Part shown: positions 6,687 through 64,000 of the stretch, one piece after another
Numbering within the stretch: position 1 is the first letter of the stretch
How the letters are laid out: every line of letters begins with the position of its first letter
Assembly: GCA_003599485.1 (NCBI GenBank)
Contig: QZKM01000006.1
Location: 2,922-66,921, forward strand
Length of the DNA: 64,000 nt
Direction: 5' to 3'
Origin: Gammaproteobacteria bacterium
GTDB taxonomy: Bacteria; Pseudomonadota; Gammaproteobacteria; SURF-13
Position numbers and translations under genes: made by a program
The notes under the pieces: generated by a model
The model's database searches: none
The model's input: only the letters and a program-made list of their open reading frames with translations
What the model was told of the DNA's origin: nothing

Positions 6687-8516
6687 ATGCGTACCACCAC
6701 CGCCTCGCCTGCCGCCACGCGCTACGAGTGGCAGACCATCCGCACGCTGATCCCGTATCTGTGGGAGTTCCGCTCCCGCGTGGTGTTCGCCATGCTGCTG
6801 CTGGTGCTGGCCAAGCTCGCCACCGTCGCGGTGCCGCTGGCGCTCAAGCAGATCGTGGACGCCCTGGATGTGGCGCGCCAGCCGCTGCTGATTCTGCCGC
6901 TCGGCCTGCTCGCCGGTTACGGCCTGCTGCGTCTGGCCAGCGCCCTGTTCGGCGAACTGCGCGACGCGATATTCGCCAAGGTCACGCAACGCGCCATGCG
7001 CCGCGTGGCGCTGCAAGTGTTCCGCCACCTGCACGCGCTCGCGCTGCGCTTTCACCTGGAGCGCCAGACCGGCGGGCTGTCGCGCGACATCGAGCGCGGC
7101 ACGCGCGGCATCACGTTTCTGCTCTCATTCATGCTGTTCAACATCCTGCCCACGCTGTTGGAGATCGGGCTGGTCACCGGCATCCTGCTCATATATTACG
7201 ACGTGTGGTACGCGCTCATCACCTTCATCACTCTGATTGTTTATGCCGCGTTTACCTTTCTCATCACCGAGTGGCGCATGAACATCGTGCGCGAGAAAAA
7301 TGAGCTCGATTCCAGGGCCAACACCAGGGCGATAGACAGCCTGCTCAACTACGAAACCGTCAAGTATTTCGGCAATGAGGACTACGAGGCGCGCCGTTAC
7401 GACGAACAGATGGCGGTGCTGGAGCGCGCCTCGGTGCGCAACCAGACCTCGCTCGCCGCGCTCAACTTCGGCCAGAGCGCGATCATCGCCGTGGGCGTGA
7501 CCTTGCTCATGATCCTCGCCGCGCAGGGCGTGGTGCAGGGCAAGCTCACGCTGGGTGATCTGGTGCTGGTGAACGCCTTCCTGATCCAGTTGTTTCTGCC
7601 GCTCAATTTTCTCGGCTTCGTGTACCGCGAAATCAAGAACTCGCTCGCCGACATGGAGCGCATGTTCAGCCTGCTGCGCCGTGAAACCGACATCCAGGAC
7701 CCTCCCGGCGCGCCCGCCCTCAACGTGGGCGCGGGCGCGGTGCGTTTCGAGCGCGTGAACTTCGGCTACGACGCCGATCGCCAGATACTGTTTGACGTGG
7801 ACTTCGAGATTCCGCCCGGGCGCAAGGTAGCGGTGGTGGGGCCGAGCGGCGCGGGCAAATCCACGCTCTCGCGCCTGTTGTTCCGGTTTTACGACGTCAC
7901 GGGCGGGCGCATCCTCATCAACGGCCAGGACATCCGCGGCGTCACGCAGCAAAGCCTGCGCGCAGCCATCGGTATCGTGCCGCAGGACACGGTGCTGTTC
8001 AATGACACCATTTATTACAACATCGCCTACGCCAGGCCCGATGCGGCGCACGAAGAGATCGTGCGCGCCGCGCGGCTGGCGCACATCCATGATTTTATCG
8101 AGTCCCTGCCCAGGGGTTACGACACCGTGGTGGGCGAGCGCGGTCTGAAATTGTCCGGCGGCGAGAAGCAGCGCGTGGCGATAGCGCGCACCATTCTGAA
8201 AGCCCCGCGGATACTCATCTTCGACGAGGCCACCTCGGCGCTCGACACGCAATCCGAACAGGCGATTTTAAACGCGCTGGCCGAGGTCGCCGCCGACCAC
8301 ACCACGCTGGTCATCGCGCACCGTTTGTCCACGGTGATAGACGCCGATGAAATCCTGGTTTTGGAGCAGGGGCGCATCGTGGAGCGCGGCACGCACCGTG
8401 CATTGCTCGCGCAGAACGCGATCTACGCGCGCATGTGGGCCTTGCAGCAGGAGGAGCGGCGCCGTATCGAACAGATCCATCAGCCTGATACAGCCCTGGG
8501 GCATGCGCATGGCTAA
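6687..8516 (+). CDS. ABC transporter, fused permease/ATP-binding protein (ABCB/Atm1-like exporter)
   Basis: 609 aa with six predicted N-terminal TM helices. Walker A GPSGAGKST, ABC signature LSGGEKQRVAIAR, Walker B ILIFDEATSALD and H-loop are all present. Confidence 0.85.
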   Translation: MRTTTASPAATRYEWQTIRTLIPYLWEFRSRVVFAMLLLVLAKLATVAVPLALKQIVDALDVARQPLLILPLGLLAGYGLLRLASALFGELRDAIFAKVTQRAMRRVALQVFRHLHALALRFHLERQTGGLSRDIERGTRGITFLLSFMLFNILPTLLEIGLVTGILLIYYDVWYALITFITLIVYAAFTFLITEWRMNIVREKNELDSRANTRAIDSLLNYETVKYFGNEDYEARRYDEQMAVLERASVRNQTSLAALNFGQSAIIAVGVTLLMILAAQGVVQGKLTLGDLVLVNAFLIQLFLPLNFLGFVYREIKNSLADMERMFSLLRRETDIQDPPGAPALNVGAGAVRFERVNFGYDADRQILFDVDFEIPPGRKVAVVGPSGAGKSTLSRLLFRFYDVTGGRILINGQDIRGVTQQSLRAAIGIVPQDTVLFNDTIYYNIAYARPDAAHEEIVRAARLAHIHDFIESLPRGYDTVVGERGLKLSGGEKQRVAIARTILKAPRILIFDEATSALDTQSEQAILNALAEVAADHTTLVIAHRLSTVIDADEILVLEQGRIVERGTHRALLAQNAIYARMWALQQEERRRIEQIHQPDTALGHAHG

Positions 8517-9183
8517 CCTGCGCCTGCCTTTTTCCGGACGGGTGCTGCTGTTTATCTTTCTCGTCGCCTTTTTGCTGACTTTCGTCCAGATCGGTATTTT
8601 GACCATCGCCTTTGAGAAACTCGGTCTGTCACAGCGTTCGGCGTTTCTGTTGCTGCTCACGGCGCTCATGGGCAGCGCAATCAATCTGCCCCTGTTTCGC
8701 GTCAAGTCAGAGCCGCTGGACCCGGAAACTGTTCCAGAGCCGCTGCGCGAACTGGTGCGCCGCAGCATGCGCGACTTCAAGGGCGTCACCGTGATCGCGG
8801 TCAACGTGGGCGGCTGCCTCATCCCGCTCACGTTTTCTTTTTACCTCATGCGCCATAGCGCGCTTGCCGTCATGGACATGGTGCTTGCCACCCTTGTGGT
8901 GACGATACTATGCCGCGCATTGAGCCGTCCCATGCCGGGCGTGGGTATTGCGCTGCCGGTCTTTATCGCTCCGGTCGCAGCGGCGCTCGCCGCCCTGTTG
9001 CTGGATACGCAAAACAGCGCGCCGCTGGCCTACATCTCCGGCACGCTCGGCGTATTGATCGGCGCCGACCTGTTGCGCCTCGGCGATATAAGAAAAATGG
9101 GCACGCCCGTCGCCTCCATCGGCGGCGCGGGCAGTTTCGACGGCATCTTTCTCACCGGCCTGGTGGCGGTGCTGCTGGCGTGA
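8503..9183 (+). CDS. polytopic inner-membrane protein of unknown function (possibly DUF1614-like)
   Basis: About 226 aa and very hydrophobic. The ATG overlaps the ABC gene stop (ATGCGCATGGCTAA). The family assignment is tentative. Confidence 0.45.
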   Translation: MRMANLRLPFSGRVLLFIFLVAFLLTFVQIGILTIAFEKLGLSQRSAFLLLLTALMGSAINLPLFRVKSEPLDPETVPEPLRELVRRSMRDFKGVTVIAVNVGGCLIPLTFSFYLMRHSALAVMDMVLATLVVTILCRALSRPMPGVGIALPVFIAPVAAALAALLLDTQNSAPLAYISGTLGVLIGADLLRLGDIRKMGTPVASIGGAGSFDGIFLTGLVAVLLA

Positions 9184-10067
9184 ACAGCGTGCTCATCACC
9201 GGCTGTTCCAGCGGCATCGGTTTATGCCTGGCCGAGGGGCTGCATGCGCGCGGCTGGCGCGTGTTCGCCGCCGCGCGCAAGCCCAACGACGTGCAAAAGC
9301 TCATCGCGCAAGACATGGAAAGCCTGCGCCTCGATCTGGATGACTCCGAATCCATCCAGGACGCCGTGCGCGAAATCCTGCAACGCACGGGCGGACGGCT
9401 GGACGCGCTCATCAACAACGGCGCTTACGGCCAGCCGGGCGCGGTGGAAGATTTACGGCGCGACGTGATCCGCACGCAGTTTGAAACCAATCTGTTCGGT
9501 TTACTGGAACTGACCAACCTGATTATTCCCGTGATGCGCAAGCAGGGCAGCGGGCGCATCATTAATATCAGCTCGCTGCTCGGTTTTGTCGCGCTGCCGT
9601 ATCGCGGCGCGTACAACGCCAGCAAATACGCCCTGGAAGGGTTGACCGACACACTGCGCCTGGAACTGAACGGCAGCGGGATTTCCGTATCGCTGATCGA
9701 GTGCGGTCCCATCACCAGCCGATTCCGCGCCAACGCCTACGCCATGTACAAGAAAAACATCAATCCACAACACAGCGCGCACCGGAATATTTACGCCGCG
9801 CTGGAACGCCGCCTCACCAAACCCGGTCCCGCCGCCCCGTTCACCCTGCCGCCGCAGGCGGTGCTGAAAAAAGTCCTGCGCGCGCTGGAAACCCCGCACC
9901 CCAGAGCGCGTTACTTCGTCACCGCGCCCAGCCATTTTTTTGCGTTGCTGAAGCGCCTGCTGCCCGCCCGTGCACTGGACTGGGTGCTGCGCCGCGTGTC
10001 GCAGGGTGAACTGAACCAGCCTCGGAGAAAGAACCCTCCCCTTGGCGGGGAGGGAAAGCAGGAGTGA
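9180..10067 (+). CDS. short-chain dehydrogenase/reductase (SDR) family oxidoreductase
   Basis: The GTG start overlaps the previous stop (GTGA). TGxxxGIG cofactor motif (ITGCSSGIG), NNGA and YxxxK (YNASKYAL) are present. Confidence 0.8.
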   Translation: MNSVLITGCSSGIGLCLAEGLHARGWRVFAAARKPNDVQKLIAQDMESLRLDLDDSESIQDAVREILQRTGGRLDALINNGAYGQPGAVEDLRRDVIRTQFETNLFGLLELTNLIIPVMRKQGSGRIINISSLLGFVALPYRGAYNASKYALEGLTDTLRLELNGSGISVSLIECGPITSRFRANAYAMYKKNINPQHSAHRNIYAALERRLTKPGPAAPFTLPPQAVLKKVLRALETPHPRARYFVTAPSHFFALLKRLLPARALDWVLRRVSQGELNQPRRKNPPLGGEGKQE

Positions 10068-37349: not shown

Positions 37350-37586
37350 TTACTCTTCTTCCGGCTCAAAAGGTTCGACGCGCAACGCGCCGTCCTTTTC
37401 CATGAGGATGTGCACCTTCTGCTCCGCGTCGCGCAGGGCCTTCTGACAGGCGCGCGTGAGTTCGATGCCGCGCTCGAAGTGTTTGAGCGAGTCCTCCAGG
37501 CTGATCTCGCCTTGTTCCATGCGCTCGACCAGCGCCTCCAGCTCCTTCAGGGCTTTTTCAAAATCCAGCGGCGTTTTCTTGGACAT
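37350..37586 (-). CDS. xseB: exodeoxyribonuclease VII small subunit
   Basis: 78 aa; LEELE..LE.G...LE.SL..FE.G consensus. Confidence 0.9.
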
Positions 37587-37719
37587 GGGCGCGGTAGCGG
37601 CGCAAGTAAGGGCTTATTTTCCGCATGGTAGCTTACTTAGGGCGGGCGCGGCAACGGCATGGCGGCGCGGGCTGACTTTAGCTATGCTGTGTGTGGGGTC
37701 AGGCGGGTTGGGGGCGTAC

Positions 37720-38772
37720 ATGTCGCTGACGGAAAACTGGGCCGAGGAGATGCGCTCGGCGTATCTTTACCGTGTTCTGGCGCAGGTGGAGCGCGATCCG
37801 GTAAAGAGCGCGCTGTTCCATAAGCTGGCCGAGGCCGCTGAAGCGCAGGCGCACATCTGGGCGCGGCAGGCGCGCGAGGCCGCCACCCCCGTTCCTGCCG
37901 GATTTCATCCCTCTCCGCGCGTGCGCCTGGTGGCGCGGCTGCTGCGCTGGTTCGGCCCGCGCGCGCTGCGCCCGGTGCTCGCCGCGGCCAAGGTGCGCGG
38001 CCTGTCCCTATACAGCGCCGGTTACAGCTCCGGGTACGGCGCCGGGCATCCCATGCCCGCTTCGCTGCAGGATTTCGGTCAGCGGCATCGAGGCGTGAAC
38101 AGCGGCGGCACGCTGCGCGCCGCCGTGTTCGGCGTCAACGACGGCCTGGTCTCCAATACCAGCCTCATCATGGGCGTGGCGGGCGCGGCGGCGGACGCCG
38201 GGATTATCCTGTTGACCGGCGCGGCGGGTCTGCTGGCGGGTGCATTGTCCATGGCGGCGGGCGAGTATGTCTCCATGCGCTCGCAGCGTGAAATGTATGA
38301 GTACCAGATCGGGCTGGAGCGTGAGGAACTGGAACAATATCCTGACGCAGAGGCCGAGGAACTGGCGCTGATCTATCAGGCGCGCGGCGCGGACATGGAG
38401 CGGGCGCGTGAGTTCGCGCGCGGTTTGCTGAAACATCCGCAGCATGCGCTGGACACGCTGGCGCGCGAAGAGCTGGGGTTGAATCCGGCCGAACTCGGTT
38501 CGCCCTGGGGCGCGGCGCTGTCTTCGTTTCTTGCCTTCGCGGCGGGTGCGTTGATTCCACTTGCGCCGTTCGTTCTAAACGTGAACGTAACCAACGCCGT
38601 GCCGCTCAGCGCCGGGCTTGCCGCCTTGAGCCTGTTTGCGGTAGGCGCGGTGCTCAGCCTGTTCACCGGCCGCCGCGCCTTCTGGGGCGGCGCGCGCATG
38701 GTGTTGATCGGCGCGGGCGCGGGCGTGGTCTCGTATTTAATAGGCAGCGCGATCGGGGCGGGGCTGGCCTGA
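37720..38772 (+). CDS. VIT1/CCC1-family iron/manganese transporter with N-terminal ferritin-like domain (MbfA-like)
   Basis: C-terminal VIT1 domain (AAVFGVNDGLVSNTSLIMGVAGA...) preceded by a ~110-aa helical, ferritin-like N-terminal region. Start (37720 or 37684) is uncertain. Confidence 0.55.
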   Translation: MSLTENWAEEMRSAYLYRVLAQVERDPVKSALFHKLAEAAEAQAHIWARQAREAATPVPAGFHPSPRVRLVARLLRWFGPRALRPVLAAAKVRGLSLYSAGYSSGYGAGHPMPASLQDFGQRHRGVNSGGTLRAAVFGVNDGLVSNTSLIMGVAGAAADAGIILLTGAAGLLAGALSMAAGEYVSMRSQREMYEYQIGLEREELEQYPDAEAEELALIYQARGADMERAREFARGLLKHPQHALDTLAREELGLNPAELGSPWGAALSSFLAFAAGALIPLAPFVLNVNVTNAVPLSAGLAALSLFAVGAVLSLFTGRRAFWGGARMVLIGAGAGVVSYLIGSAIGAGLA

Positions 38773-38926
38773 AAACGCCGCGCTTGACGCCAGTCCGGGG
38801 GGACGGAATGATGAACGGCTATGGGCAGGACGGCCGGCGTTTGGCGAGGCAGCGGGGCGATGCAAGGCGCGGTTTGCGTCAACTTTAAAGTTCATTACCT
38901 GGCGTTTGACAACTGAGGGGGGCGTT

Positions 38927-40138
38927 ATGAACCTGGTCTATAAACACGAAAAACCGCTGTTCTATATTCTGGTGGTTATCTCACTGTTGATTTGGATTGG
39001 TGTAATTGCCGTTACCTCCGGCATCGCGCTGATTTACGTGGCAGTGGCTTTTATCTTTTATCTGTTTTTCCAGTCGGCCTTTATTTCTTATTTGAAGGGT
39101 ACGGCGGTCAAAATCACCGTGCAACAGTTTCCCGATCTCCATGAGCGCGTTACAGCGTGCTGCGCCAGGCTTGGTATCAGTAAAATTCCCGATGCCTATT
39201 TGCTGCGTTCCGACGGAGCATTCAATGCCTTCGCCACGCGCTTCCTGGGGCGTAATTTCATCGCCCTGTATTCCGAGCTCGCCGACGCGCTGGAGGCGCA
39301 ACCGGGCGCCCTCGACTTTTATATTGGCCATGAGTTGGGCCACATTCATCGCGGCCATCTCAAGTGGCATGTATTCACCTGGCCCGCGAGCATTCTGCCG
39401 TTGCTCGGCGCGGGCTATTCCAGGGCGTGTGAATATACCTGTGATCGCTATGGCCTTGCCTGTGTCACCGATCCGAACGATGCAAAAGCGGGGATGGCGG
39501 CGCTGGCGGCGGGCGCCAAACGCTGGCGCACGCTCAGTCATCAGCACTATGCCGCCCAGGACACGCGTGGTTTCTGGATGTCCTTTCATGAGTTGACCGG
39601 CGACTATCCCTGGCTCACCAAGCGTATGGCCACGCTGGATGCCTTGATCGCCAGGCAGCCCGTGCGCCTGCCGCGGCGCAACATTTTCGCCTGGCTGCTC
39701 GCGCTGTTTGTCCCGCGCCTGGGGCTGGGTAAAGGGGCGGCGGGCGGGATGATTGTCCTGCTGGTCATCGTCGGCGTACTCGCCGCGATTTCCTTTCCGG
39801 CGTATCAAGAGTTTCAGATGCGTGCCAACGTGGCGGGCGTCTTTGCCGAAATCGGCCATGTGAAGACCGCCATTGACACCTACCGTTTGGATAATAACGC
39901 CCTGCCCAACAGCAATGAGGAACTCAACCTGCCGGTAACGGGCGACTATGGTAAAAATATCCAATCCATTGCAGTGAGCGAGGGCGGGATCATCACCGTC
40001 ACGTTGACGGGGGCGCTGGAGGATAAGTCAGTGGTGCTGGGCTATATTGAAGGGAGCGAAGGGGAGGTATGGGCGTGTGAAAGCGATACCCTCGACAAAA
40101 AATATCTGGAGCGATATTGCCAGGTGGTAGGCCAATAG
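38927..40138 (+). CDS. M48-family zinc metallopeptidase fused to a C-terminal leaderless type IV pilin-like domain
   Basis: HExxH motif HELGHIHRGH within a membrane-embedded M48 core. The last ~140 aa resemble a mature type IVa pilin: hydrophobic alpha1 (MIVLLVIVGVLAAISFPAYQEFQMRANVAGVFAEIG) and a C-terminal Cys pair (WACESD...YC). It lacks the G|FTLIE prepilin cleavage motif. An RBS (gaggggg) precedes the ATG. Confidence 0.6.
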   Translation: MNLVYKHEKPLFYILVVISLLIWIGVIAVTSGIALIYVAVAFIFYLFFQSAFISYLKGTAVKITVQQFPDLHERVTACCARLGISKIPDAYLLRSDGAFNAFATRFLGRNFIALYSELADALEAQPGALDFYIGHELGHIHRGHLKWHVFTWPASILPLLGAGYSRACEYTCDRYGLACVTDPNDAKAGMAALAAGAKRWRTLSHQHYAAQDTRGFWMSFHELTGDYPWLTKRMATLDALIARQPVRLPRRNIFAWLLALFVPRLGLGKGAAGGMIVLLVIVGVLAAISFPAYQEFQMRANVAGVFAEIGHVKTAIDTYRLDNNALPNSNEELNLPVTGDYGKNIQSIAVSEGGIITVTLTGALEDKSVVLGYIEGSEGEVWACESDTLDKKYLERYCQVVGQ

Positions 40139-40176: not shown

Positions 40177-41121
40177 ATGAAATGTGATTTGCATGGAATC
40201 ATCAAAGCGCTGTGGATAGTCATGAGCCTGATGGCTGCGGGCAGCGCCGCGTTCGCGGCGGAGCCGGCGCCGGATTATCTTGCCCAGGGGCAGCAGAAAT
40301 ACCAGGCCAAGGACTATCAGGGCGCGCTGGCGGACTTTGATCTCGCGGTGAACGCCGCGCCTAGGCGCGCCGAGGCCTATTATTGGCGCGGGGTGACCAA
40401 GATTGATCTCAAGCTTGCCAAATCCGCCATCACCGATTTTGACCAGGCCATCCGCCTGAAGAAAAATTACGCCGATGCCTATTACGAGCGCGCGTACGCC
40501 AAAAGCGAGATCGGCGATTATCAGGGCGCGCTCAAGGATTTGGACAAGGTAGTCGCGCTCAAGCCCGATCACGTCAATGCCTACAACGAGCGCGGCTGGG
40601 TCAAGACGCAGCTTGGCGACCACCGCGGCGCGATCAAGGATTCGGACAAGGCCATTGCGCTCAAGCCCGATTGGGCGACGCCCTACCGCGTGCGCGGCGA
40701 CGCCAAAAACAAACTGCAAGACCTGGGCGGAGCCATCGCGGACTGGCAAAGGGCGATCCAGCTTGACGCCAGTTTTGCCCAGATATTGAATCCGGAGATA
40801 GACAAGGCCCAGGCCGCGCTCAAGACCCAGGCCCACGCCGGAAAGTGCGCTGGCGAATTGATTACGACCAGTGGTTATGTCATCAACTGGACCGAGTGGG
40901 GCGAGCGCTATGGCATCGCCAATCCGTTTCTCATCATCAGCGGTCCGGAATATCAGGGCGAGGATGGCAAGACCCCGTACTATGGTTTGTATAATTTTCC
41001 CCATCTCAAGGACGCTGGGAACATAAGCCTTACCGGCTGCGTGCCGCAGCAGCGCTCGCCATACCGGGGCCTCAAGTACTTCAGCGAGGTGTATGAGGTG
41101 CAGTCGGTGGCGCCGCACTAG
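40177..41121 (+). CDS. TPR-repeat protein, secreted
   Basis: Signal peptide (LMAAGSAAFAA) followed by ~5 TPR units (AEAYYWRG.., ADAYYERA.., VNAYNERG.., ATPYRVRG..) and a C-terminal domain of unknown function. Confidence 0.7.
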   Translation: MKCDLHGIIKALWIVMSLMAAGSAAFAAEPAPDYLAQGQQKYQAKDYQGALADFDLAVNAAPRRAEAYYWRGVTKIDLKLAKSAITDFDQAIRLKKNYADAYYERAYAKSEIGDYQGALKDLDKVVALKPDHVNAYNERGWVKTQLGDHRGAIKDSDKAIALKPDWATPYRVRGDAKNKLQDLGGAIADWQRAIQLDASFAQILNPEIDKAQAALKTQAHAGKCAGELITTSGYVINWTEWGERYGIANPFLIISGPEYQGEDGKTPYYGLYNFPHLKDAGNISLTGCVPQQRSPYRGLKYFSEVYEVQSVAPH

Positions 41122-53606: not shown

Positions 53607-54024
53607 AATACAGAGAAAAGGGGAAAGGGCAAAGGGCAAAGGGAACAGAATTAGGATTTTTCCCTTTGTCCTTTCCCCTTTTCTCTTTGCCCTGTTCTCG
53701 GTTCAAGCCGGATTGCCACAGGTGGAAGGAGAGCTTTCCGATCCCACCAGGCCCCCGGACTATCGGGCGGCCGCCGCCGGGATCGCCGATGCCGTGGCCG
53801 CGCCGCAGTGGGTGCTGAAATCCATACTGATTTCACCCGGCCGGCGCAGCGCTGTTTTGAATGGACGCGCAATCAAAAAGGGCGAACAATTGGACAACCA
53901 GGTGACGGTGCTGGACATCCTGCCCGGCTCGGTATTATTGAAAGGCGCGGAGGGCGAATTTTCTGTGAATTTATTACCCACAACGGTCAAGATGCCGGTC
54001 AATTCCGGGAGCCCGGTCCAATGA
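53599..54024 (+). CDS. mshK: MSHA biogenesis protein MshK (PilP-like lipoprotein/periplasmic)
   Basis: The GTG start overlaps the mshJ end. Lys/Arg-rich n-region then hydrophobic FVLSPFLFALFSVQAG. Overlaps mshL as caATGa. The start assignment is uncertain (ATT/CTG alternatives). Confidence 0.45.
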   Translation: MCEIQRKGERAKGKGNRIRIFPFVLSPFLFALFSVQAGLPQVEGELSDPTRPPDYRAAAAGIADAVAAPQWVLKSILISPGRRSAVLNGRAIKKGEQLDNQVTVLDILPGSVLLKGAEGEFSVNLLPTTVKMPVNSGSPVQ

Positions 54025-55745
54025 CGGACGTTACCATCTCGCGGGTGTGGCGGAGATTGGCGCCGGCGCTGATAATGGCCATCGCGCTGGCGGGCTGCAC
54101 CGCGCCGCCGCAAAATGACAGCGCCGCGCGAAACATTGAAAAAACCCTGGAACACGCCGCGCGCGAGTCCGAGGCGCAGGCGCGCGCCAAGGATCAACCG
54201 CCACGCGAGGTGCTGGACGCCCTGTTGCCGCCGCTCGACGCCGGCAGCCTGCGCGGCCCGGCGGCCGAACCGGTGTTCGATATCGCGGTGAACAATCTCA
54301 ACGCCCAGGAATTTTTCCTCAGCCTGGTGGAAGGGACTCCCTATAATGTCGTGGTGCATCCCGAGGTGACCGGCGCAATCTCGCTCAACCTGAAGGGAAT
54401 GACCATCCCGCGCGTCATGGAGAGCGTGCGCGACGTGTACGGCTATGACTTCCAGCGCACTGGCGCCACCTTCCGCATATTGCCCGCCACGCTACAGACG
54501 CGCCTGTTCAAGGTGGATTATCTGCGCGTGAACCGCACCGGCCAGTCCCAGACGCGCATCAGCTCCGGACAGCTTTCGCAGCAGGTGGGCAGCACCAGCG
54601 GCACGACCACCGGCACGACCACCGGCACAACAGGCAGCGCCACGGGCGTCACCTCGAATGAGGTGAAGACCGAGTCCAAATCAGACTTCTGGACTGAACT
54701 GGAGGCCTCGCTTACGGCGTTGGTGGGTTCGGGGGAGGGCAGAAGCGTGGTGGTGAGCCAGCAGTCGGGCGTGGTGGTGGTGCGCGCCCTGCCCAGCGAA
54801 CTGCGCAATGTGGAACTGTTTCTTAACTCCACGCAAACCTCCATCGAACGCCAGGTGATACTGGAGGCCAAGATTCTGGAAGTGGAATTGAGCGATGGTT
54901 TCCAGTCCGGCATCAACTGGACCGCGTTGGTCGAGCCCGGCAACAATAAAAGCATCACCGTTGGCCAGACAGGCGTCAGAACCAGCGCCACCGGAGCGGT
55001 AAGCGGCGTTCTGGCCGCCACCGGCGTTGCCGCCGGGGGGGCGTTCTCGGCCGCCAACGGAGTATTCTCGCTGGCCTTGGCGCTCAATGACTTCAATGTC
55101 TTTATTGATTTGCTGAAGCAACAGGGCAATGTGCACGTGTTGTCCAGTCCGCGCGTCTCCACGGTCAATAATCAGAAGGCGCTCATCAAGGTGGGCTCGG
55201 ATGAGTTTTTCGTCACCAGCGCCACGGCCACCACCACCACCACCACCGGCACGACGACGACCACGCCCAGCGTCACACTCACGCCCTTCTTTTCCGGCAT
55301 CGCACTGGAAGTGATTCCGCAGATCAACGAGGCCGGCGAGGTTATTTTGTACATCCATCCGTCCGTAAGCGAGGTGCGGGATCAACAAAAGTCCATTACT
55401 TTCGGCGGCGTCACTCAAACCCTGCCGCTCGCCTTGAGCAATGTGCGCGAATCCGACAGCATTGTGCGCGCCGCCAACAATCAAGTGGTGGTGATCGGCG
55501 GCCTGATGCAGGATAGCTCGCGCAACGACAGGGCCAGTGTGCCGGGCGCGGACGGGCCGGTGCTGGGCAAGCTGCTGGGCCACAAACGCGGCTCCTCGCG
55601 CAAGAGCGAGCTGGTGATTCTGCTGCGCCCCACCGTGGTCGAGAGTGATTACCAATGGGCGGAGTCGCTGCGCACTACCGCCGACTCCTTCAAGAGCATC
55701 AAGCGGGCCGCCCCGGAAAGCGCCCGCGCTGATGAAATCCGCTGA
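54021..55745 (+). CDS. mshL: MSHA secretin MshL (GspD/PilQ secretin family lipoprotein)
   Basis: Lipobox LAGC. C-terminal secretin domain (VVVIGGLMQD...ELVILLRPTVV). Thr/Gly-rich linkers (TSGTTTGTTTGTTGSATG; TATTTTTTGTTTTTPS). Confidence 0.8.
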   Translation: MTDVTISRVWRRLAPALIMAIALAGCTAPPQNDSAARNIEKTLEHAARESEAQARAKDQPPREVLDALLPPLDAGSLRGPAAEPVFDIAVNNLNAQEFFLSLVEGTPYNVVVHPEVTGAISLNLKGMTIPRVMESVRDVYGYDFQRTGATFRILPATLQTRLFKVDYLRVNRTGQSQTRISSGQLSQQVGSTSGTTTGTTTGTTGSATGVTSNEVKTESKSDFWTELEASLTALVGSGEGRSVVVSQQSGVVVVRALPSELRNVELFLNSTQTSIERQVILEAKILEVELSDGFQSGINWTALVEPGNNKSITVGQTGVRTSATGAVSGVLAATGVAAGGAFSAANGVFSLALALNDFNVFIDLLKQQGNVHVLSSPRVSTVNNQKALIKVGSDEFFVTSATATTTTTTGTTTTTPSVTLTPFFSGIALEVIPQINEAGEVILYIHPSVSEVRDQQKSITFGGVTQTLPLALSNVRESDSIVRAANNQVVVIGGLMQDSSRNDRASVPGADGPVLGKLLGHKRGSSRKSELVILLRPTVVESDYQWAESLRTTADSFKSIKRAAPESARADEIR

Positions 55746-55768
55746 GAACAGAATGAGAGGACACCGTC

Positions 55769-56698
55769 ATGTACCTTGAACACTTCGGTTTGCGTGAGAC
55801 GCCCTTCACCCTCACGCCGGATACCAGTTTTTTCTACGCCTATGATTCGCACGTGGCCACGCTCAACACCCTGCTGGTGGCGCTGCGCAGCGGAGACGGG
55901 TTTATCATGGTGACGGGCGAGGTGGGCACCGGCAAGACCTTGCTGTGCCGCAAGCTGCTTTCTTCACTGCGCAACGAGGAATTCGTCACCGCCTATATCT
56001 ACAACCCTTATCTGGAGCCGATGACCTTGCTGTACGCCGTGGCGGACGAATTGCGCGTCCAATACAAGGATAAGCTGAATCAACACCAGTTGTTGAAAGT
56101 TATCACCAAGGCGCTGATTGATTTCTACGCCGCGGGCAAGCGCGTGGCGCTGTGTCTGGACGAGGTGCAGGCGATGCCGGTGGAAACGCTGGAAACGCTG
56201 CGCCTGCTCACCAACCTGGAAACGGAAAAGCGCAAATTGCTGCAAGTGGTGTTGTTTGGCCAGCCTGAATTGCACCAGGTGCTGGACCAGCCGTCGGTCA
56301 GGCAGCTCAAACAACGCATCGTGTTTTCCCACAGCCTGTTGCCTCTGGACAGGGACGGCACGGAAGGCTACGTGATGCACCGCTTGACCGTCGCGGGCTA
56401 TAACGGCAAGCGGCTGTTTACCGGCGATGCGCTGCGCGATTTATATCGGGCGAGCGGCGGCATCCCGCGCCTGGTGAATGTCATCTGCCATAAGGCGCTG
56501 ATGGCCGCCTACGGCCAGGGTAAGCGCAGCGTCGAGCGTCGGCACATGCGCCTGGCGGTGCAGGACACGCTCGGCGGCGACGTGGTCCCGCCCGCCGCCT
56601 CGCACCGCTGGGCCTATTCGCTGCTCGGCGCCGGAGGTCTGCTGCTGCTCGCCGCCGGCGGTTACTATTACTACGGAGCCAACTTGTTCCCGGCATGA
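55769..56698 (+). CDS. mshM: MSHA biogenesis protein MshM (ExeA-like AAA ATPase)
   Basis: Walker A GEVGTGKT and Walker B LCLDEVQ; ExeA/MshM family. Confidence 0.8.
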   Translation: MYLEHFGLRETPFTLTPDTSFFYAYDSHVATLNTLLVALRSGDGFIMVTGEVGTGKTLLCRKLLSSLRNEEFVTAYIYNPYLEPMTLLYAVADELRVQYKDKLNQHQLLKVITKALIDFYAAGKRVALCLDEVQAMPVETLETLRLLTNLETEKRKLLQVVLFGQPELHQVLDQPSVRQLKQRIVFSHSLLPLDRDGTEGYVMHRLTVAGYNGKRLFTGDALRDLYRASGGIPRLVNVICHKALMAAYGQGKRSVERRHMRLAVQDTLGGDVVPPAASHRWAYSLLGAGGLLLLAAGGYYYYGANLFPA

Positions 56699-57902
56699 GT
56701 CTGATTAATCAAGTGCTGCGTGACCTGGAGAGCGGACGCCCTCGGGGCCCGGCGGCCAATGCGCTGGGTGATTTACGCCCGGCCCAGTCACCGTCCCCGT
56801 CTTCCATGCTGCGGCAAGTCAACTGGCGGCGGCTCGCGGCGATAGTGTCCGGGTTCGCCCTGCTGCTCGGAGGCTATCTCTGGTATGCGCGCATGAACCC
56901 GGCGCCGCCGCCGCTGACCTTCAGCGTGGCGCCCGCGGTAACACCCGCCGTTGCGCCGCAGACCGGCGGAGGCGGGACCCCGGAAGCGCCGCCGGCGCAA
57001 ACCGGGGTGGCGGCAAGCGTTGCTACTCAGGGCGCGCAAGCGCCGTCCATGGATACCCCGCCCCCCGTCCCGGAGGCGGTCACGTCCGAGGTTCCTGTTT
57101 CTGCGCCCGGCGCCGCGCCGCCGGTGGAGGCGCTCCCCCCGCAGCAGGATGCCGGGCAGCAGGATGCCGGTAAAAAGACCGATGCGGATGTTGCCGCGCA
57201 GACGGCGGGCAATGAACAGGCGCAACGCGCACCCACGCCGCCCGCTGCCCAGCCGCCCGCACGCGTGCAGGACAGCACCCCGGCCGGCCGCCCGCCGCGT
57301 ATCAAAAAGCCCAGCGTCCAGGGACCCTCCCAGTTGGCTGAGCGCAACTATCAAGAGGCCGTCGAGGCGCTGCAAAACGGCAAAGTTGCGGACGCCCGGC
57401 AAAGACTGCGTGAGGCCCTGGCGCAACAGCCGCGCCATCACCAAAGCCGCGAGCTGCTGGCCGAGATTTATCTGCGCGGCGGCCAGACCGGTGAGGCGGA
57501 AAGCCTGCTCGCGGCGGGCGCGGCGCTGGATCCGGGCCATACCCTGTTCAGCAAACTGCACGCGCGCCTGTTGGCGCAGCGCGGCGATATTTCCGGCGCG
57601 CTGCGGGTTTTAGAGCGGTATCCGGCGGACGCCGCCGGCGACCCCGAACACCACGCCCTGCTCGGCGCGCTTTATCAGCGCGCCGGGAATCACGCGCAGG
57701 CAATTTCCGCTTACCGGGCCGCGCTGCGCCTGCAATCGAACCAGGGCCAGTGGTGGATGGGGCTCGCCATTTCCCTGGAGGCGGAGCAAAATCCAGGCGA
57801 GGCGCTGAGCGCCTACCGGCGCGCGCAGAGCTCCGGCGCCCTCACCGGGGCCGCGCTGGACTTCGTGCAACGCAAGATCACGCGCCTGGAGGCGTCCGCG
57901 TC

Positions 57903-57906
<4 letters not shown>
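56695..57906 (+). CDS. mshN: MSHA biogenesis protein MshN (TPR repeats, Pro/Ala-rich linker)
   Basis: TM anchor, a ~130-aa Pro/Ala-rich low-complexity segment, then C-terminal TPR repeats. Confidence 0.6.
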
Positions 57907-59678
<1,772 letters not shown>

Positions 59679-59731
59679 TATCTCGTAACGTCTGAAATTT
59701 CCAGATCAGAAAAGATGATTATTCTTTCGCC

Positions 59732-59974
59732 GTGAAAGGATACAAGTTCACACCGTATTTCGAAAATGAGGTATTACGTAAACGTCCTTATCTGAGCAAA
59801 GAGTGGTGTATTCGAGTTCTTGAAAGCCCTATTAAGGTTGAAACTCAGGAGGGTAACCGCTTCCGTTTTTGGGGCACAATTGCCGAACTAAATGGTAAGA
59901 TATTACGAGTCATTACCCTGGAAGATAAGGTTACCATCCATAACGCCTTTCCGGACAGAGGGTTTAAACCATGA
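59732..59974 (+). CDS. DUF4258-family toxin-like protein
   Basis: 80 aa within a sharply AT-rich segment (~59690-60200). Paired with a DUF2283 gene by a 4-nt overlap. Confidence 0.6.
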   Translation: MKGYKFTPYFENEVLRKRPYLSKEWCIRVLESPIKVETQEGNRFRFWGTIAELNGKILRVITLEDKVTIHNAFPDRGFKP

Positions 59975-60189
59975 GACTTAAATACTATCCTGAAACTGAT
60001 TCGCTCTATATTGATCTTTCAGAAAAGCCCAGCACCGAGAGCAAGGAGATTTCTGAGGGGGTGGTGCTGGATTATGATGACAGCGGGAATCTGGTGGGTA
60101 TTGATATTGACAATGCCAGTAAAAAGATAGAACTCAAAGAATTGACATTAAGTCATCTCCCCTCCATTGTCCACACAGTCGCTGCTTGA
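59971..60189 (+). CDS. DUF2283-family antitoxin-like protein
   Basis: 72 aa. Y-x-PE-D-LYI-L...G-LVGIDI pattern typical of DUF2283. Start overlaps the DUF4258 stop (ATGA). Confidence 0.6.
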   Translation: MRLKYYPETDSLYIDLSEKPSTESKEISEGVVLDYDDSGNLVGIDIDNASKKIELKELTLSHLPSIVHTVAA

Positions 60190-60266
60190 TACTACGTTTG
60201 AAGGAGATTGGAGGGAGGCGGGGTTTTTCTTGATCCCATAAACCTCGTCCCGCGAGCGAACCCGTC

Positions 60267-61496
60267 ATGCCGCTGTTCAACTACCAAGGCCGCAGTGCGC
60301 GCGGAGAGCTCATCAAGGGCTCCGTGGACGGGATGAGCGCCGACGCGGTCGCCAGCCAGTTGTTCAACAGCGGCATCACCCCGATAGACATCGTCGAGGC
60401 GCGGCCGGAGACGGACGTGCTGGTATTGCTGAAGCGCCATCTTGCTCAAGGCAAGGCGGAGTTGTCGGATCTGATTCTGTTCAGTCACCAGATGTACACC
60501 CTTACCAAGGCCGGCGTGCCCATTACCCAGGCGCTCGCCGGTCTCGCCGAGTCCACGCGCAAGCACGACTTCAAGGAGGTGCTCAAGGACGTCGCGGACA
60601 GCCTGCAAAGCGGACGCGATCTGGCGAGCTCGCTCAACCGCCACCCGCGGGTCTTCAACCGCTTGATTGTGAGCATCGTCCAGGTGGGCGAGAGCAGCGG
60701 CAACCTGGATCAGGCGTTTGTGCAACTTTCAAAATATCTGGAAACGGAAAAAGATACGCGCGACCGCATCAAGTCGGCGCTGCGCTACCCCGTCATCGTG
60801 ATGATTGCGATTGCCGTGGCCGTGGCCATCATCAATATTTTCGTGATCCCGGCCTTCGCCAAGCTCTTCGCCAGCTTCAAGGCCGAACTGCCGTGGGCCA
60901 CCAAGCTGCTCATCGGTACGTCGGATTTTTTTGTCGCCTACGGACCTTATATACTGGCCGCGCTGCTGATCGGTGGCATCGGCCTGCGCGCATGGATCAA
61001 GACCGACGAGGGGCGTTATGCCTGGGACCGCTTCAAGCTGAGAATACCCCTGCTCGGCGACATCCTCAACCGCGCCACTCTGGCGCGCTTCGCGCGCTCC
61101 TTCGCCATGGCGCAGCGCGCCGGCGTGCCGCTGGTGCAGGGGCTCACGGTGGTGGCCAACGCGGTGGACAACCGCTACATCGGCGACCACATCCTGGCCA
61201 TGCGCAACGGCATCGAGCGCGGCGAGAGCATGACCCGCACCGCCGCCCTCTCCGGCATGTTCACCCCCATGGTGTTGCAGATGATGGGCGTGGGCGAGGA
61301 AACCGGCGCGCTGGACGACATGATGCAGCAGGTGGCGGAGTTCTACGAGCGCGAGGTGGACTACGACATCAAGAACCTGAGCGCCAACATAGAACCGGTC
61401 CTGATCGTGGCCATCGGCATCATGGTGTTGATTCTGGCGCTGGGCGTATTCCTGCCCATGTGGGACCTGGCCCAGGCCGCGCGCCGCGGGGGATAA
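60267..61496 (+). CDS. mshG: MSHA biogenesis inner-membrane platform protein MshG (GspF family)
   Basis: 409 aa with two GspF repeats and three TM helices. Confidence 0.85.
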   Translation: MPLFNYQGRSARGELIKGSVDGMSADAVASQLFNSGITPIDIVEARPETDVLVLLKRHLAQGKAELSDLILFSHQMYTLTKAGVPITQALAGLAESTRKHDFKEVLKDVADSLQSGRDLASSLNRHPRVFNRLIVSIVQVGESSGNLDQAFVQLSKYLETEKDTRDRIKSALRYPVIVMIAIAVAVAIINIFVIPAFAKLFASFKAELPWATKLLIGTSDFFVAYGPYILAALLIGGIGLRAWIKTDEGRYAWDRFKLRIPLLGDILNRATLARFARSFAMAQRAGVPLVQGLTVVANAVDNRYIGDHILAMRNGIERGESMTRTAALSGMFTPMVLQMMGVGEETGALDDMMQQVAEFYEREVDYDIKNLSANIEPVLIVAIGIMVLILALGVFLPMWDLAQAARRGG

Positions 61497-62020
61497 TGGA
61501 TAAGGCACGCGGATTCTCGCTGATCGAGATGGTGATCGCGGTCATCCTGGTGGGCATACTCTACGTCATCGCCATTGATAAACTTCTGGAGATGCGCGTG
61601 GACGCCGAGCGCGTGGCCATGGAAAACGTGGTGGGCGCCCTGAAGAGCGCGCTCAGCATCGAGGTCGCCGCGCATATCGTGCGCGATGACATCAAGGGTC
61701 TGTACACCCTGGAAGGAACCAACCCCATGCGGCGTCTGAGTGAAAAACCCAGGAACTATCTGGGCGAGCTGGCCGCTCCGGATCCGGCCGCTATTGAGGG
61801 CGGCAACTGGTACTTCGATACGCGCGAGGCGGCGTTGATCTACCGCGTCCAATACGGCGACTTTTTTAAGACAACCCTGCTCGGCCCGCCGCGCGCGCGC
61901 TTTGCGGTAAGGCTGGATTACGATGACCTGAACGGCAACCGCGTCTTCGACCAGGGCGTGGAAGAAGTGCACGGTCTGCGCCTTGAGGCTTTGGAGAGCT
62001 ATGCGTGGAACCTGAGTTAG
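61496..62020 (+). CDS. mshF: MshF-like minor (pseudo)pilin with class III prepilin leader
   Basis: MDKARG|FSLIEMVIAVILVGIL prepilin peptidase site. Start overlaps the mshG stop (TAATG). The larger 60893-62020 ORF is an out-of-frame artefact across mshG. Confidence 0.5.
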   Translation: MDKARGFSLIEMVIAVILVGILYVIAIDKLLEMRVDAERVAMENVVGALKSALSIEVAAHIVRDDIKGLYTLEGTNPMRRLSEKPRNYLGELAAPDPAAIEGGNWYFDTREAALIYRVQYGDFFKTTLLGPPRARFAVRLDYDDLNGNRVFDQGVEEVHGLRLEALESYAWNLS

Positions 62021-62064
62021 CAGCAGGTATGGGAATTTCCCTCACAGTATGAGACTATTTCATC

Positions 62065-62712
62065 ATGCAAATACACCTCCTGAATGAGATTCTGCTGGAA
62101 ACGCTGCTTGCCCTGCTGCTGGGCGGGGCGGCGTTAAGTTTGATCGTCGGCGTGTGGTTGTACTTCCACCCTGAGCGGCTGTTTTCGCTCGGTCAGCGGC
62201 TCAATCAATGGTTTTCCACGCAGTCGCTCACCCGGGCCATGGACGCCACCTTCCACATCGAGCGCCCCGTGTACCGCCGGCACCGTTGGATCGGCGCGCT
62301 GCTGGCCGTAAGCGCGCTCTACATACTGTACCAGTTGAGTTTCCGCTACGACAAAAGCGCCACCTTGCGCATGCTGGAGAATCACAACCTCCAGCTTGCC
62401 GGCTGGCTGCTGGATTCGGCCGCTTTTTTAATCGCGCTCACCAGCGTACTGACGCTGGCGATCGGCATTTGCCTGCTGATCAGGCCCAGCCTGCTGCGGG
62501 CGTTTGAAACATGGAGCAACCGCTGGTACCGCGGTGGCGACAAGGTGGCGCAGCTTCTGGACGACATGCATCATCACCCCGACCGCCTGGCCGTTCGCCA
62601 CTCACGTTTTATTGCGGTTTTGATCGTGCTGGGCAGCCTGTACGTGTTGACCAACCTGGGCTTTGTCGCGTTCACGCACGGCTGGGGTGTATTGTCGGTG
62701 CTCTACCGGTAG
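62065..62712 (+). CDS. hypothetical 4-TM inner-membrane protein inside the msh cluster
   Basis: 215 aa with four hydrophobic helices. No recognised family. Confidence 0.4.
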   Translation: MQIHLLNEILLETLLALLLGGAALSLIVGVWLYFHPERLFSLGQRLNQWFSTQSLTRAMDATFHIERPVYRRHRWIGALLAVSALYILYQLSFRYDKSATLRMLENHNLQLAGWLLDSAAFLIALTSVLTLAIGICLLIRPSLLRAFETWSNRWYRGGDKVAQLLDDMHHHPDRLAVRHSRFIAVLIVLGSLYVLTNLGFVAFTHGWGVLSVLYR

Positions 62713-63005
62713 CCGGATGCACTATATATCCTACCTTTACAGTAGGTTAAAAAGGTGAAGACGGGCAGGGACACTTGTTATGAAACAGCCAGTGCATTAT
62801 AGTAAACCTGTTTTTTATGGGGAAATAATATTGAAATAGTATTACTTTAAGCTTGGTTCCGCACGGAGGGCGTTCAAGCGCGCGCTGCGGCGCACGCGCG
62901 GACCGGAACTTGAGCATGGCGGATAGAAATCCGCGCAGTAGATTTATGGTGCTAGGGTAAGACAATGGGCTGCGGCCCCTTATACTTGACATTCTGGAGA
63001 AAAAT

Positions 63006-63464
63006 ATGGATATCAGAAAACAACCCGGCTTCACCCTCATCGAACTGGTGCTGGTCATCACCATCCTCGGTATCCTCGCCGCCTTCGCGGTGCCGCGCTT
63101 TATCAGCATAAGCGCAGACGCCCGCCTGGCGACGGTGAACAGCCTGGCCGGCAGCCTGCGCAGCGCCGCGGCGCTGGCGCATAGCGTCGCCCTGGTGCAG
63201 GCCGCGGGGGCAAGCTCCTCCATCAGCGTGGACGGAGCGACAGTAACCATGGTGCAACACTATCCCGCGGGCACCGCCGATGGTATCGTTGCCGCACTTC
63301 AGGATTTGACAGGATTCACCTCCTCCGCTTCAGCCGGCATCGTCACTTTCCAGGTCAAAGGCGTAGCCACGCCGGCTTCGTGTCAGGTGCAGTACACACA
63401 GGCAAGCGGGACAGGAGGGGCGCCCACGATCACCGTGACGGCGAGCACTTCGGGTTGTAGTTAA
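63006..63464 (+). CDS. mshB: MSHA-type type IV pilin (MshB-like), class III prepilin
   Basis: MDIRKQPG|FTLIELVLVITILGILAAFAVPRF leader and alpha1 helix. Confidence 0.75.
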   Translation: MDIRKQPGFTLIELVLVITILGILAAFAVPRFISISADARLATVNSLAGSLRSAAALAHSVALVQAAGASSSISVDGATVTMVQHYPAGTADGIVAALQDLTGFTSSASAGIVTFQVKGVATPASCQVQYTQASGTGGAPTITVTASTSGCS

Positions 63465-63526
63465 GCACGCGACGGTTACAGATTACGGTATGGGCTGCGG
63501 CCCTTGACTTTGAAAGGAGAACAAAC

Positions 63527-63976
63527 ATGAAAAAGCAAACCGGCTTCACCCTCATTGAGCTTGTATTGGTCATCACCATCCTCGGCATCCTCGCCGCCTT
63601 CGCGGTGCCGCGTTTTATCAACATCACCGGAGACGCCCGCCTGGCGACGGTGAATGCCTTGGCCGGCAGCATGCGCAGCGCCGCGGCGCTGGCGCACAGC
63701 ATGGCGCTGGCCACCGCTGCGGGCGCTGCTTCTTCAATCAGCATGGAAGGGGCCACCGTCACCATGGCGTTCCACTATCCTACCGGCGACGCAGCCGGGA
63801 TAGGGACGGCGCTGCAGGATACGGGCGGCTTTTTTTCAAACGCGTCGGGGAGCACCATCACTTTCAGCCCTGGTGCGGCTATTGATAGCGACTGTCAGGT
63901 GACCTACACCTCCTCCACCGGCACGGGGCTGTCTCCGACCATCACAGTAACCGCCAGCGCGGCAAACTGCGCCTAA
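63527..63976 (+). CDS. mshA: MSHA-type major pilin (MshA-like), class III prepilin; paralogue of upstream pilin
   Basis: MKKQTG|FTLIELVLVITILGILAAFAVPRF. The first ~60 aa are nearly identical to the upstream pilin; the C-terminal halves diverge. Confidence 0.75.
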   Translation: MKKQTGFTLIELVLVITILGILAAFAVPRFINITGDARLATVNALAGSMRSAAALAHSMALATAAGAASSISMEGATVTMAFHYPTGDAAGIGTALQDTGGFFSNASGSTITFSPGAAIDSDCQVTYTSSTGTGLSPTITVTASAANCA

Positions 63977-64000
63977 GCCTGAACGGGGCTCCGCCCTCCG

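Follow-up and report, generated by a model that had tools for sequence, protein, structure and literature searches.

An M48 zinc metallopeptidase fused to a pilin-derived membrane module in a gammaproteobacterial genome and its relatives

The DNA considered here is a stretch of 64,000 nucleotides (the window) from contig QZKM01000006.1 of a Gammaproteobacteria bacterium (assembly GCA_003599485.1). One of its genes is a single open reading frame (ORF) of the forward strand, the product of which begins as a zinc metallopeptidase of family M48 and ends as a module derived from type IV pilins (Table 1). An earlier note, made from the sequence alone, had proposed this fusion and estimated its length at about 410 residues. 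The length had to be corrected to 403; the fusion itself is genuine, with both Pfam domains above their cut-offs and an architecture that is conserved. The start codon is the ATG of MNLVYK, the methionine at which, in an alignment of homologues, these proteins begin as well. A TTG at 38906 would yield a longer ORF and is mechanically possible, yet all homologues use the methionine of MNLVYK instead. The M48-pilin architecture is already visible in databases. There the identical protein is listed as a hypothetical protein of a gammaproteobacterial metagenome-assembled genome (MAG), and automated annotation calls its relatives 'M48 family metalloprotease' or 'Zn-dependent protease.../Tfp pilus assembly major pilin PilA'. 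The earlier note knew of no characterised peptidase-pilin fusion. Nor did full-text searches of the literature yield any description or discussion of an M48-pilin or HtpX-pilin fusion; co-mentions were unrelated.

Judged by profile model, motif and predicted fold, the protein belongs to peptidase family M48. Peptidase_M48 (Pfam PF01435) matches with an E-value of 2.8e-16 and 60.3 bits, against a cut-off of 20.3, the best stretch being residues 66-145. The same model matches 50 of 50 homologues, and the fold resembles that of solved M48 enzymes. In an alignment of 50 members with 47-57% identity, the invariant positions are H135, E136, H139 and H144 of the zinc motif HELGHIHRGH, further R166, E169, Y170 and D173 and, in the C-terminal half, W382, C384 and C398; T171 and C172 are conserved in at least 90%. 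Glu169 would be the zinc ligand downstream of HExxH, by analogy with M48 enzymes. As far as residues can tell, the catalytic site is intact and invariant. The earlier note had rightly recognised an M48 core with an intact motif, but had embedded it in transmembrane (TM) helices; HExxH lies instead in a domain of 190 residues between an N-terminal hairpin and the pilin helix.

HtpX (M48B) is the inner-membrane quality-control zinc protease of E. coli and exposes its catalytic domain on the cytoplasmic side. The fusion protein shares with it the N-terminal pair of TM helices and the HExxHxxxxH zinc motif with a downstream Glu ligand. It differs in that H139 and E169 are only 30 residues apart, that nothing in it corresponds to the hydrophobic regions 3 and 4 of HtpX, and that it carries a family-specific motif, GFWMSFHEL..DYPWL.KR, and the C-terminal pilin module. 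NCBIfam reports a weak HtpX similarity over residues 10-151 with at best 33.6 bits. Since this is far below every HtpX equivalog cut-off (341), the protein is not an HtpX orthologue.

The C-terminal half was said to look like a type IVa pilin, and it does. The Pfam Pilin model (PF00114) matches residues 299-398 at 42.2 bits (cut-off 22), with an E-value of 1.8e-10. The family profile finds the gonococcal and meningococcal PilE at about 2e-23 (gonococcal 1.6e-23), aligned from pilin residue 5 onwards, and Pseudomonas PilA at about 1e-12; NCBIfam adds weak similarities to PpdD and GspG. The motif PAYQEFQ occupies residues 291-297, and the invariant C384 and C398 are placed as expected for the C-terminal D-region disulfide of pilins. 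If pilin numbering is anchored on the invariant Pro22, 178 non-redundant members share the consensus V-A-I-I-G-I-L-A-A-(I/V)-A-I-P-A-Y-Q-D-Y-T-x-R at positions 10-30, with G14 conserved in 99%, A18 and P22 in 100%, A23 in 92%, Y24 in 96%, Q25 in 87% and Y27 in 89%. These pilin-specific residues of alpha1 are kept far beyond what a plain anchor needs. Like Neisseria PilE and Pseudomonas PilA, the module thus combines an alpha1 helix with G14, P22 and AYQ(D/E)(Y/F), an alpha-beta head and a C-terminal Cys pair.

A structure prediction had been suggested as a check. The AlphaFold2 model built on the family alignment is confident, with a mean pLDDT of 88.4 and a pTM of 0.71; only residues 100-110 and 261-280 score low. 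Behind the two N-terminal helices (8-29 and 33-59) it places a domain made up largely of helices together with a small sheet (60-241), then a short helix (253-259), a helix of 38 residues (271-308) that runs on into 310-323, four strands and a C-terminal helix. The C-terminal part has the pilin fold, i.e., a long N-terminal helix packed on a beta-sheet, and Foldseek returns as significant matches in the PDB full-length type IV pilins only (best 5vxx, E 1.2e-5; target TM-scores about 0.6-0.66).

In other respects the module is unlike any major pilin. It sits inside a protein behind some 270 residues, starting at residue 270 or later, and lacks a class III signal peptide, a cleavage site, Glu5 and a free N-terminus. 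Where a prepilin would have its leader and pilin residues 1-5, the fusion has a Gly-rich linker. Among the 178 members, position 1 is Gly in 89% and never Phe, position 2 is Gly in 83%, positions 3-4 are Ala or Gly, and position 5 is Ser in 66%, Gly in 16% and Ala in 7%; Glu5 is found in 0/178 and, in a set covering the wider family, in 0/50. The model for N-terminal prepilin cleavage and methylation matched neither the query nor 50 + 113 relatives. The earlier note had found no G|FTLIE site and had reasoned that the pilin part cannot be a substrate of prepilin peptidase, and on both counts, as regards a standard substrate, its view holds: no Gly|Phe site, no Glu5, no match to the methylation model. 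Three ordinary prepilins encoded in the same window do carry such sites (GFSLIEM and GFTLIEL), so the prepilin peptidase of this host meets classical sites, none of which is present in the fusion. N-terminal processing is what defines type IV pilins, and a pilin module behind 270 residues of an enzyme contradicts the usual definition. The protein N-terminus has no class III signal peptide with Glu5; the module, although homologous to type IVa major pilins, is therefore properly named pilin-derived and not a pilin. It retains all the features of a membrane-inserted, folded subunit and has lost all those by which a pilin can be cleaved and polymerised. Without Glu5 and a free N-terminus, assembly into a filament is expected to be impossible.

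The conserved junction nevertheless invites the idea of a precursor: a polyprotein that is cut at the Gly-rich stretch, by prepilin peptidase or by its own M48 domain, and releases a pilin-like protein with a short N-terminus to the membrane or the periplasm. Prepilin peptidases depend chiefly on Gly(-1), the family strongly conserves Gly or Ala at -1 and Gly at both +1 and +2, and the junction is flexible in the model (pLDDT 60-67) and close to the catalytic domain in sequence. Yet there is no Phe or Met at +1, and the missing Glu5, the unmatched cleavage model and the classical GF(T/S)LIE sites of the genome's own prepilins all speak against such processing. Moreover, the released product would be unable to polymerise, and those relatives that end shortly behind the helix (see below) would release a bare TM helix. 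We consider a precursor quite improbable.

How the protein is placed in the membrane follows from a few features. The mean Kyte-Doolittle hydropathy exceeds 1.6 in two blocks only. The first, residues 8-56, corresponds to a two-helix hairpin with an uncharged loop of four residues; the second, residues 264-296, is the pilin helix, in line with alpha1-N as a membrane helix. Ahead of it, residues 244-274 (31 residues) contain five K+R and no D+E. The head is acidic and has the conserved Cys pair. When pilins enter the membrane, their N-terminus stays in the cytoplasm and their head comes to lie in the periplasm. From the three hydrophobic spans, the basic stretch and the acidic head we infer that the protease is cytoplasmic and the head periplasmic: the N-terminus would be cytoplasmic, two TM helices would follow, the M48 domain would lie, as in HtpX, at the cytoplasmic face together with the linker, and alpha1-N would cross to the periplasmic side, where the head would be disulfide-bonded. 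Catalytic site and pilin head would then be on opposite sides of the membrane, a qualification that goes beyond the earlier note. From the active site to the cytoplasmic end of the pilin helix it is only some 25 residues, made up of a basic amphipathic helix and a flexible linker and modelled with a low pLDDT of 60-67.

The fusion is widespread. The query matches 2233 database proteins, and nearly all of the top 120 have 395-416 residues and both Pfam domains. With each GTDB species represented by one genome, a scan revealed relatives at 293 loci, mostly in beta- and gammaproteobacteria. The best 80 of these 293 include cultured Marinobacter, Massilia, Duganella, Rugamonas, Thalassolituus, Marinobacterium, Gilvimarinus, Paraglaciecola and Caldimonas, and many MAGs (Methylococcaceae, Cellvibrionaceae, Burkholderiales, Sulfurifustis). 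The earlier note had asked whether the architecture recurs in other genomes, and had named a frameshift joining two genes as a finding that would overturn its view. Sequencing or assembly error of this kind can be dismissed: nothing beyond the unusual architecture would suggest it, whereas a single ORF of 395-416 residues recurs in hundreds of independent genomes and metagenomes (293 species-level genomes in our scan), the junction is conserved, and both halves are under purifying selection. Measured against its two nearest relatives, which are about 90% identical, dN/dS amounts to 0.12-0.17 in the M48 part and to 0.14-0.17 in the pilin head. The head is thus under purifying selection as strong as the protease, and both halves are maintained. 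When the pilin part alone (39749-40135) was used as query for homologues, no match was obtained, as against 2233 with the full-length protein; this looks like a limit of the word index rather than biology.

The M48 module has a wider family of its own. Residues 1-262 alone, searched against 1.84 billion cluster representatives, matched 369 proteins at E <=1e-30 and 1083 at E <=1e-10. Of the best 150 matches, 117 span the whole M48 module. Their C-terminal tails, classified by models built from the beta/gamma group, comprise 26 with a recognisable pilin helix and head, 29 with a helix and a head that the beta/gamma models do not recognise, 14 with a pilin-like head behind a degenerate helix, and 48 with neither helix nor head. 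Among 113 members Pfam detects Pilin in 32, Pilin_GH in two and Pilin_PilA, ComP_DUS, DUF1559, ankyrin repeats, Sel1 and TPR in one each. Other modules replace the pilin head in P0213, P0151, P0248, P0226, P0144/P0150, P0171 and P0184; one finds there the pilin alpha1 with ankyrin repeats, Sel1 repeats, TPR repeats, a pilin-like module of the Planctomycete H-X9-DG/DUF1559 type, or unannotated Cys-containing domains. An exchange of the head for repeats that mediate protein-protein interaction would fit a targeting role. Still other relatives (P0056, P0069, P0087, P0111, P0155 and P0156; e.g., in Acidiferrobacterales) end 20-35 residues past Pro22 and have no head. Helix-only lineages and heads swapped for protein-binding repeats together point to a helix that is indispensable and a head that acts as a targeting or binding module. 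A precedent for targeting is BepA, an M48 protease that docks on the BAM machine via its C-terminal TPR domain. Both combine an M48 domain with a C-terminal interaction module, and some members of the fusion family have TPR, Sel1 or ankyrin repeats as well. BepA, however, is wholly periplasmic and soluble or peripheral, whereas protease and head of the fusion are predicted on opposite sides of the inner membrane.

The type of pilin varies with the lineage. The helix ends in ...AIPAYQDY in the beta/gamma type, in ...AIPNF.KFQAR in the Myxococcus type and in ...AIPNLLRAK in a Thermus-like type of Omnitrophota; the wider family further has a style with ...AIPSLLRARVAANEA and the H-X9-DG/DUF1559 module of Planctomycete type. 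For the named cluster members, the annotations as Polyangiales, Omnitrophota and H-X9-DG were confirmed. The tail of P0241 matches Myxococcus xanthus PilA through residue 78 with an E-value of 2e-19, with 70% identity over pilin positions 7-54; that of P0224 has Thermus PilA4 as best match. Neisseria PilE is closest to the modules of the beta/gamma group, and Thermus PilA4 to those of Omnitrophota. Over positions 7-54, fused modules of the Myxococcus type are 70% and 54% identical to a free pilin of their own type and 27-39% to fused modules of other types. The corresponding figures are 35-56% and 20-39% for the beta/gamma type and 41-43% and 20-37% for the Omnitrophota type. In each group, then, the module resembles a free pilin of the matching type more than it does fusion modules of a different type; P0231 alone gives a tie. 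The M48 modules of the same fusions are orthologous, with 37-41% identity to the query, and the junction is alike across the pilin types, with small residues (Gly, Ala, Ser) from -3 to +5 and Glu5 in none of 50.

The M48 module, then, marks out a larger family that spans several phyla, and the pilin part fused to it is of the type found in the host's lineage. The simplest reading would be that there was one ancestral junction and that the pilin part downstream of about residue 6 was repeatedly re-matched to the pilin of the host. This could have happened by recombination inside the conserved segment encoding alpha1-N, or there could have been several independent fusions. Selection appears to favour likeness to the host's own major pilin, which one would hardly expect of a mere membrane anchor. 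The fusion is a real and widespread oddity, well supported, and the matching of its decoy pilin to the lineage gives an evolutionary signal that is not trivial.

The explanation we prefer, with a probability of roughly 0.4, is that the protein is an HtpX-like zinc endopeptidase of the inner membrane, with three TM helices and its active site at the cytoplasmic face, which is steered by the decoy pilin to membrane pilins or to the type IV pilus machinery. The module would descend from a major pilin of type IVa like that of the host, having lost the Gly(-1)/Phe1 site, Glu5 and the free N-terminus, and would stay in the membrane like a permanently unassembled subunit. By means of alpha1-N, and perhaps of the head, it could pair with membrane (pre)pilins or with pilin-binding parts of the machinery; PilD, PilC, PilN/O and PilS are candidate partners. 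Pairing would bring the cytoplasm-proximal segments of these partners beside the M48 active site, some 25 residues upstream of the decoy helix, and the protease might then trim or degrade them, so that the pilin pool or the machine would be kept under quality control or turned over. Partner, substrate and physiological role are proposals on our part. In its more far-reaching form, to which we give a little less credence, the proposal describes a multi-phylum class of pilus regulators: M48 proteases with a decoy of the host's major pilin, re-matched again and again, that police the pilin pool or the assembly platform from the cytoplasmic side. The earlier note had considered a pilin-mimicking protease, and the match of pilin types across phyla lends this idea support.

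That a pilin helix may serve as a specific binding module within the membrane is not without precedent. The membrane-embedded N-terminal helix of pilin acts in this way on PleC in Caulobacter (PMC7196804), and in Pseudomonas it binds PilS (Kilmury and Burrows 2016, as cited in PMC6058289 and PMC7196804). In the sensing of the PilA pool by PilS and PleC (same two sources), alpha1-N provides the intramembrane interaction surface. There a free pilin binds a kinase, whereas here the pilin helix is covalently part of the enzyme and the interaction is a prediction.

Several observations weigh against a protease steered to pilins. A substantial share of the wider M48 family has a non-pilin tail or a degenerate helix, which implies that the protease core does not strictly need the pilin. 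The pilin head has few conserved surface positions. Pilus genes adjoin the fusion in none of 80 genome loci, nor in four distant ones (Polyangiales, Omnitrophota and two others), and to this extent the idea of a pilus-associated protease, likewise considered in the earlier note, loses ground. ORF clustering of the 80 loci and the window revealed no conserved neighbour at all: no gene is shared by more than 12 loci, and such sharing stays within a genus. Upstream of the gene, no consensus for sigma-54 (as at pilA), sigma-32, CpxR or sigma-E was found in 77 loci. Genomic context gives no clue to function, and this is the main weakness of any model that links the protein to pili.

The same facts can be used to argue for a generic quality-control protease of membrane proteins, an HtpX paralogue for which a pilin was exapted as third anchor and stabilising periplasmic knob, unrelated to pili. 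The gene stands alone amid housekeeping genes (dxs, ispA, xseB, VIT1, typA), the weak NCBIfam similarity to HtpX is in line, and so are the family members with non-pilin or very short tails and the lack of adjoining pilus genes. For an anchor, however, the near-invariant pilin-specific residues (G14, P22, AYQDY) would be needless, as would be a head under purifying selection, and the module matches the host's pilin type in at least three phylum-level groups. The earlier note had envisaged a built-in pilin-like anchor. Its membrane helix is supported; that the module is merely an anchor remains a live rival, unlikely in our judgement, though the least unlikely of those considered.

Slightly less probable still is a one-component sensor like BlaR1/MecR1, in which the periplasmic pilin-like domain or its helix would sense, e.g., the membrane pilin pool and switch on the protease to cut a cytoplasmic regulator. 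The layout is the same: a membrane-embedded gluzincin that faces the cytoplasm, a final TM helix and an extracytoplasmic C-terminal domain. Weak matches to Pfam Peptidase_M56, the family of BlaR1, occur in 1/50 and 5/113 members, the periplasmic module is exchangeable across the family, and membrane pilin pools are known as signals for PleC and PilS (PMC7196804, PMC6058289). The likeness is one of layout only. The peptidase families differ, the sensor of BlaR1 is a penicillin-binding fold and not a pilin, and the query itself has no Peptidase_M56 match. The BlaR1 gene adjoins that of its repressor substrate, whereas the fusion has neither an adjacent BlaI/MecI-type repressor gene nor any other conserved partner (no gene common to more than 12 of 81 loci). 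Also, little of the head surface is conserved, and several helix-only lineages have no head with which to sense.

The preferred reading, a protease guided by pilin mimicry, would have consequences for pilus biology. How size and quality of the inner-membrane pilin pool are controlled is only partly understood, and the known examples, PilS and PleC, are kinase-based. Proteolysis would add a further layer to pilus control, one shared by hundreds of beta- and gammaproteobacteria from the environment and from hosts, by Myxococcota and Omnitrophota, and by bacteria of the PVC (Planctomycetes) type. Such a protease would also exemplify clearly how, in nature, domain capture can lead to mimicry of a substrate or partner. 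Carriers such as Marinobacter, Massilia and Duganella can be cultured and offer an experimental handle. If the pilin is only an exapted anchor, the fusion is a modest curiosity of domain evolution.

Table 1. Features of the fusion gene and of other genes in the window
Feature	Position	Strand	Residues	Remarks
Fusion gene, M48 zinc metallopeptidase with pilin-derived module	38927-40138	+	1-403	Single ORF, 403 residues plus stop
Shine-Dalgarno-like sequence GAGGGGGG	38915-38922	+		Read from sequence; ATG 4 nt further on
N-terminal hairpin, two TM helices	38948-39103	+	8-59	AlphaFold2 helices 8-29 and 33-59; uncharged hydrophobic block 8-56
M48 catalytic domain	39104-39676	+	60-250	Predicted cytoplasmic
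Zinc-binding motif HELGHIHRGH	39329-39358	+	135-144	Read from sequence; H135, E136, H139, H144 invariant
Glu169, presumed third zinc ligand	39431-39433	+	169	Within R-x-x-E-Y-T-C-D; by analogy with M48 enzymes
Basic juxtamembrane stretch	39677-39748	+	251-274	Short amphipathic helix (RRNIFAWLLALFVPR), then Gly-rich linker
Pilin alpha1-N helix	39749-39814	+	275-296	About pilin positions 6-27; third TM helix
Pilin alpha1-C helix and globular head	39815-40135	+	297-403	Predicted periplasmic
D-region-like Cys pair	40076-40120	+	384-398	Cys384 and Cys398 invariant in 50 homologues, likewise W382
VIT1-family ORF	37456-38772	+		Iron/manganese transporter-like
Secreted TPR-repeat protein	40177-41121	+		Signal-peptide-like N-terminus
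Type IV pilus or MSHA-like cluster	53808-64000	+		About 13.7 kb downstream of the fusion
Secretin	53808-55745	+		Pilus/MSHA-like cluster
ATPase with MshEN domain	57750-59678	+		Pilus/MSHA-like cluster
Platform protein	60267-61496	+		Pilus/MSHA-like cluster
Three classical prepilins	~61511; 63006-63464; 63527-63976	+		GFSLIEM or GFTLIEL; pilus/MSHA-like cluster

In the window the fusion gene is flanked by a VIT1-family gene and by the gene of a secreted TPR protein; farther away lie TypA/BipA downstream and xseB, ispA and dxs upstream. The VIT1-family ORF has some 219 residues without Pfam match ahead of its VIT1 domain, and its true start is uncertain. The TPR gene starts 38 bp past the stop of the fusion, and no terminator-like site was found between the two, so they may be co-transcribed. 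Of the two closest relatives just one has it: it is found downstream in locus L001, but is absent from L002 and from more distant loci; synteny of VIT1, TPR protein and TypA is confined to the two closest relatives. Sigma-70-like and terminator-like matches did not exceed chance level, and PADLOC gave no match that would suggest a role in anti-phage defence. The proximity of the pilus or MSHA-like cluster is not conserved elsewhere.

Four MAGs with unexpected labels (Bacteroidota, Helicobacteraceae, Cyclobacteriaceae and Desulfatitalea; loci L003, L071, L075 and L076) contain a fusion of beta/gamma type with 41-54% identity, which reflects either binning contamination or horizontal transfer. 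In a Polyangiales MAG (L081) the M48-pilin gene is directly preceded, at 8180-9976 of that locus, by the gene of a paralogue of 598 residues, which joins Peptidase_M48 to a dienelactone hydrolase/S9 domain. The two form a tandem pair of M48 proteases with differing C-terminal modules.

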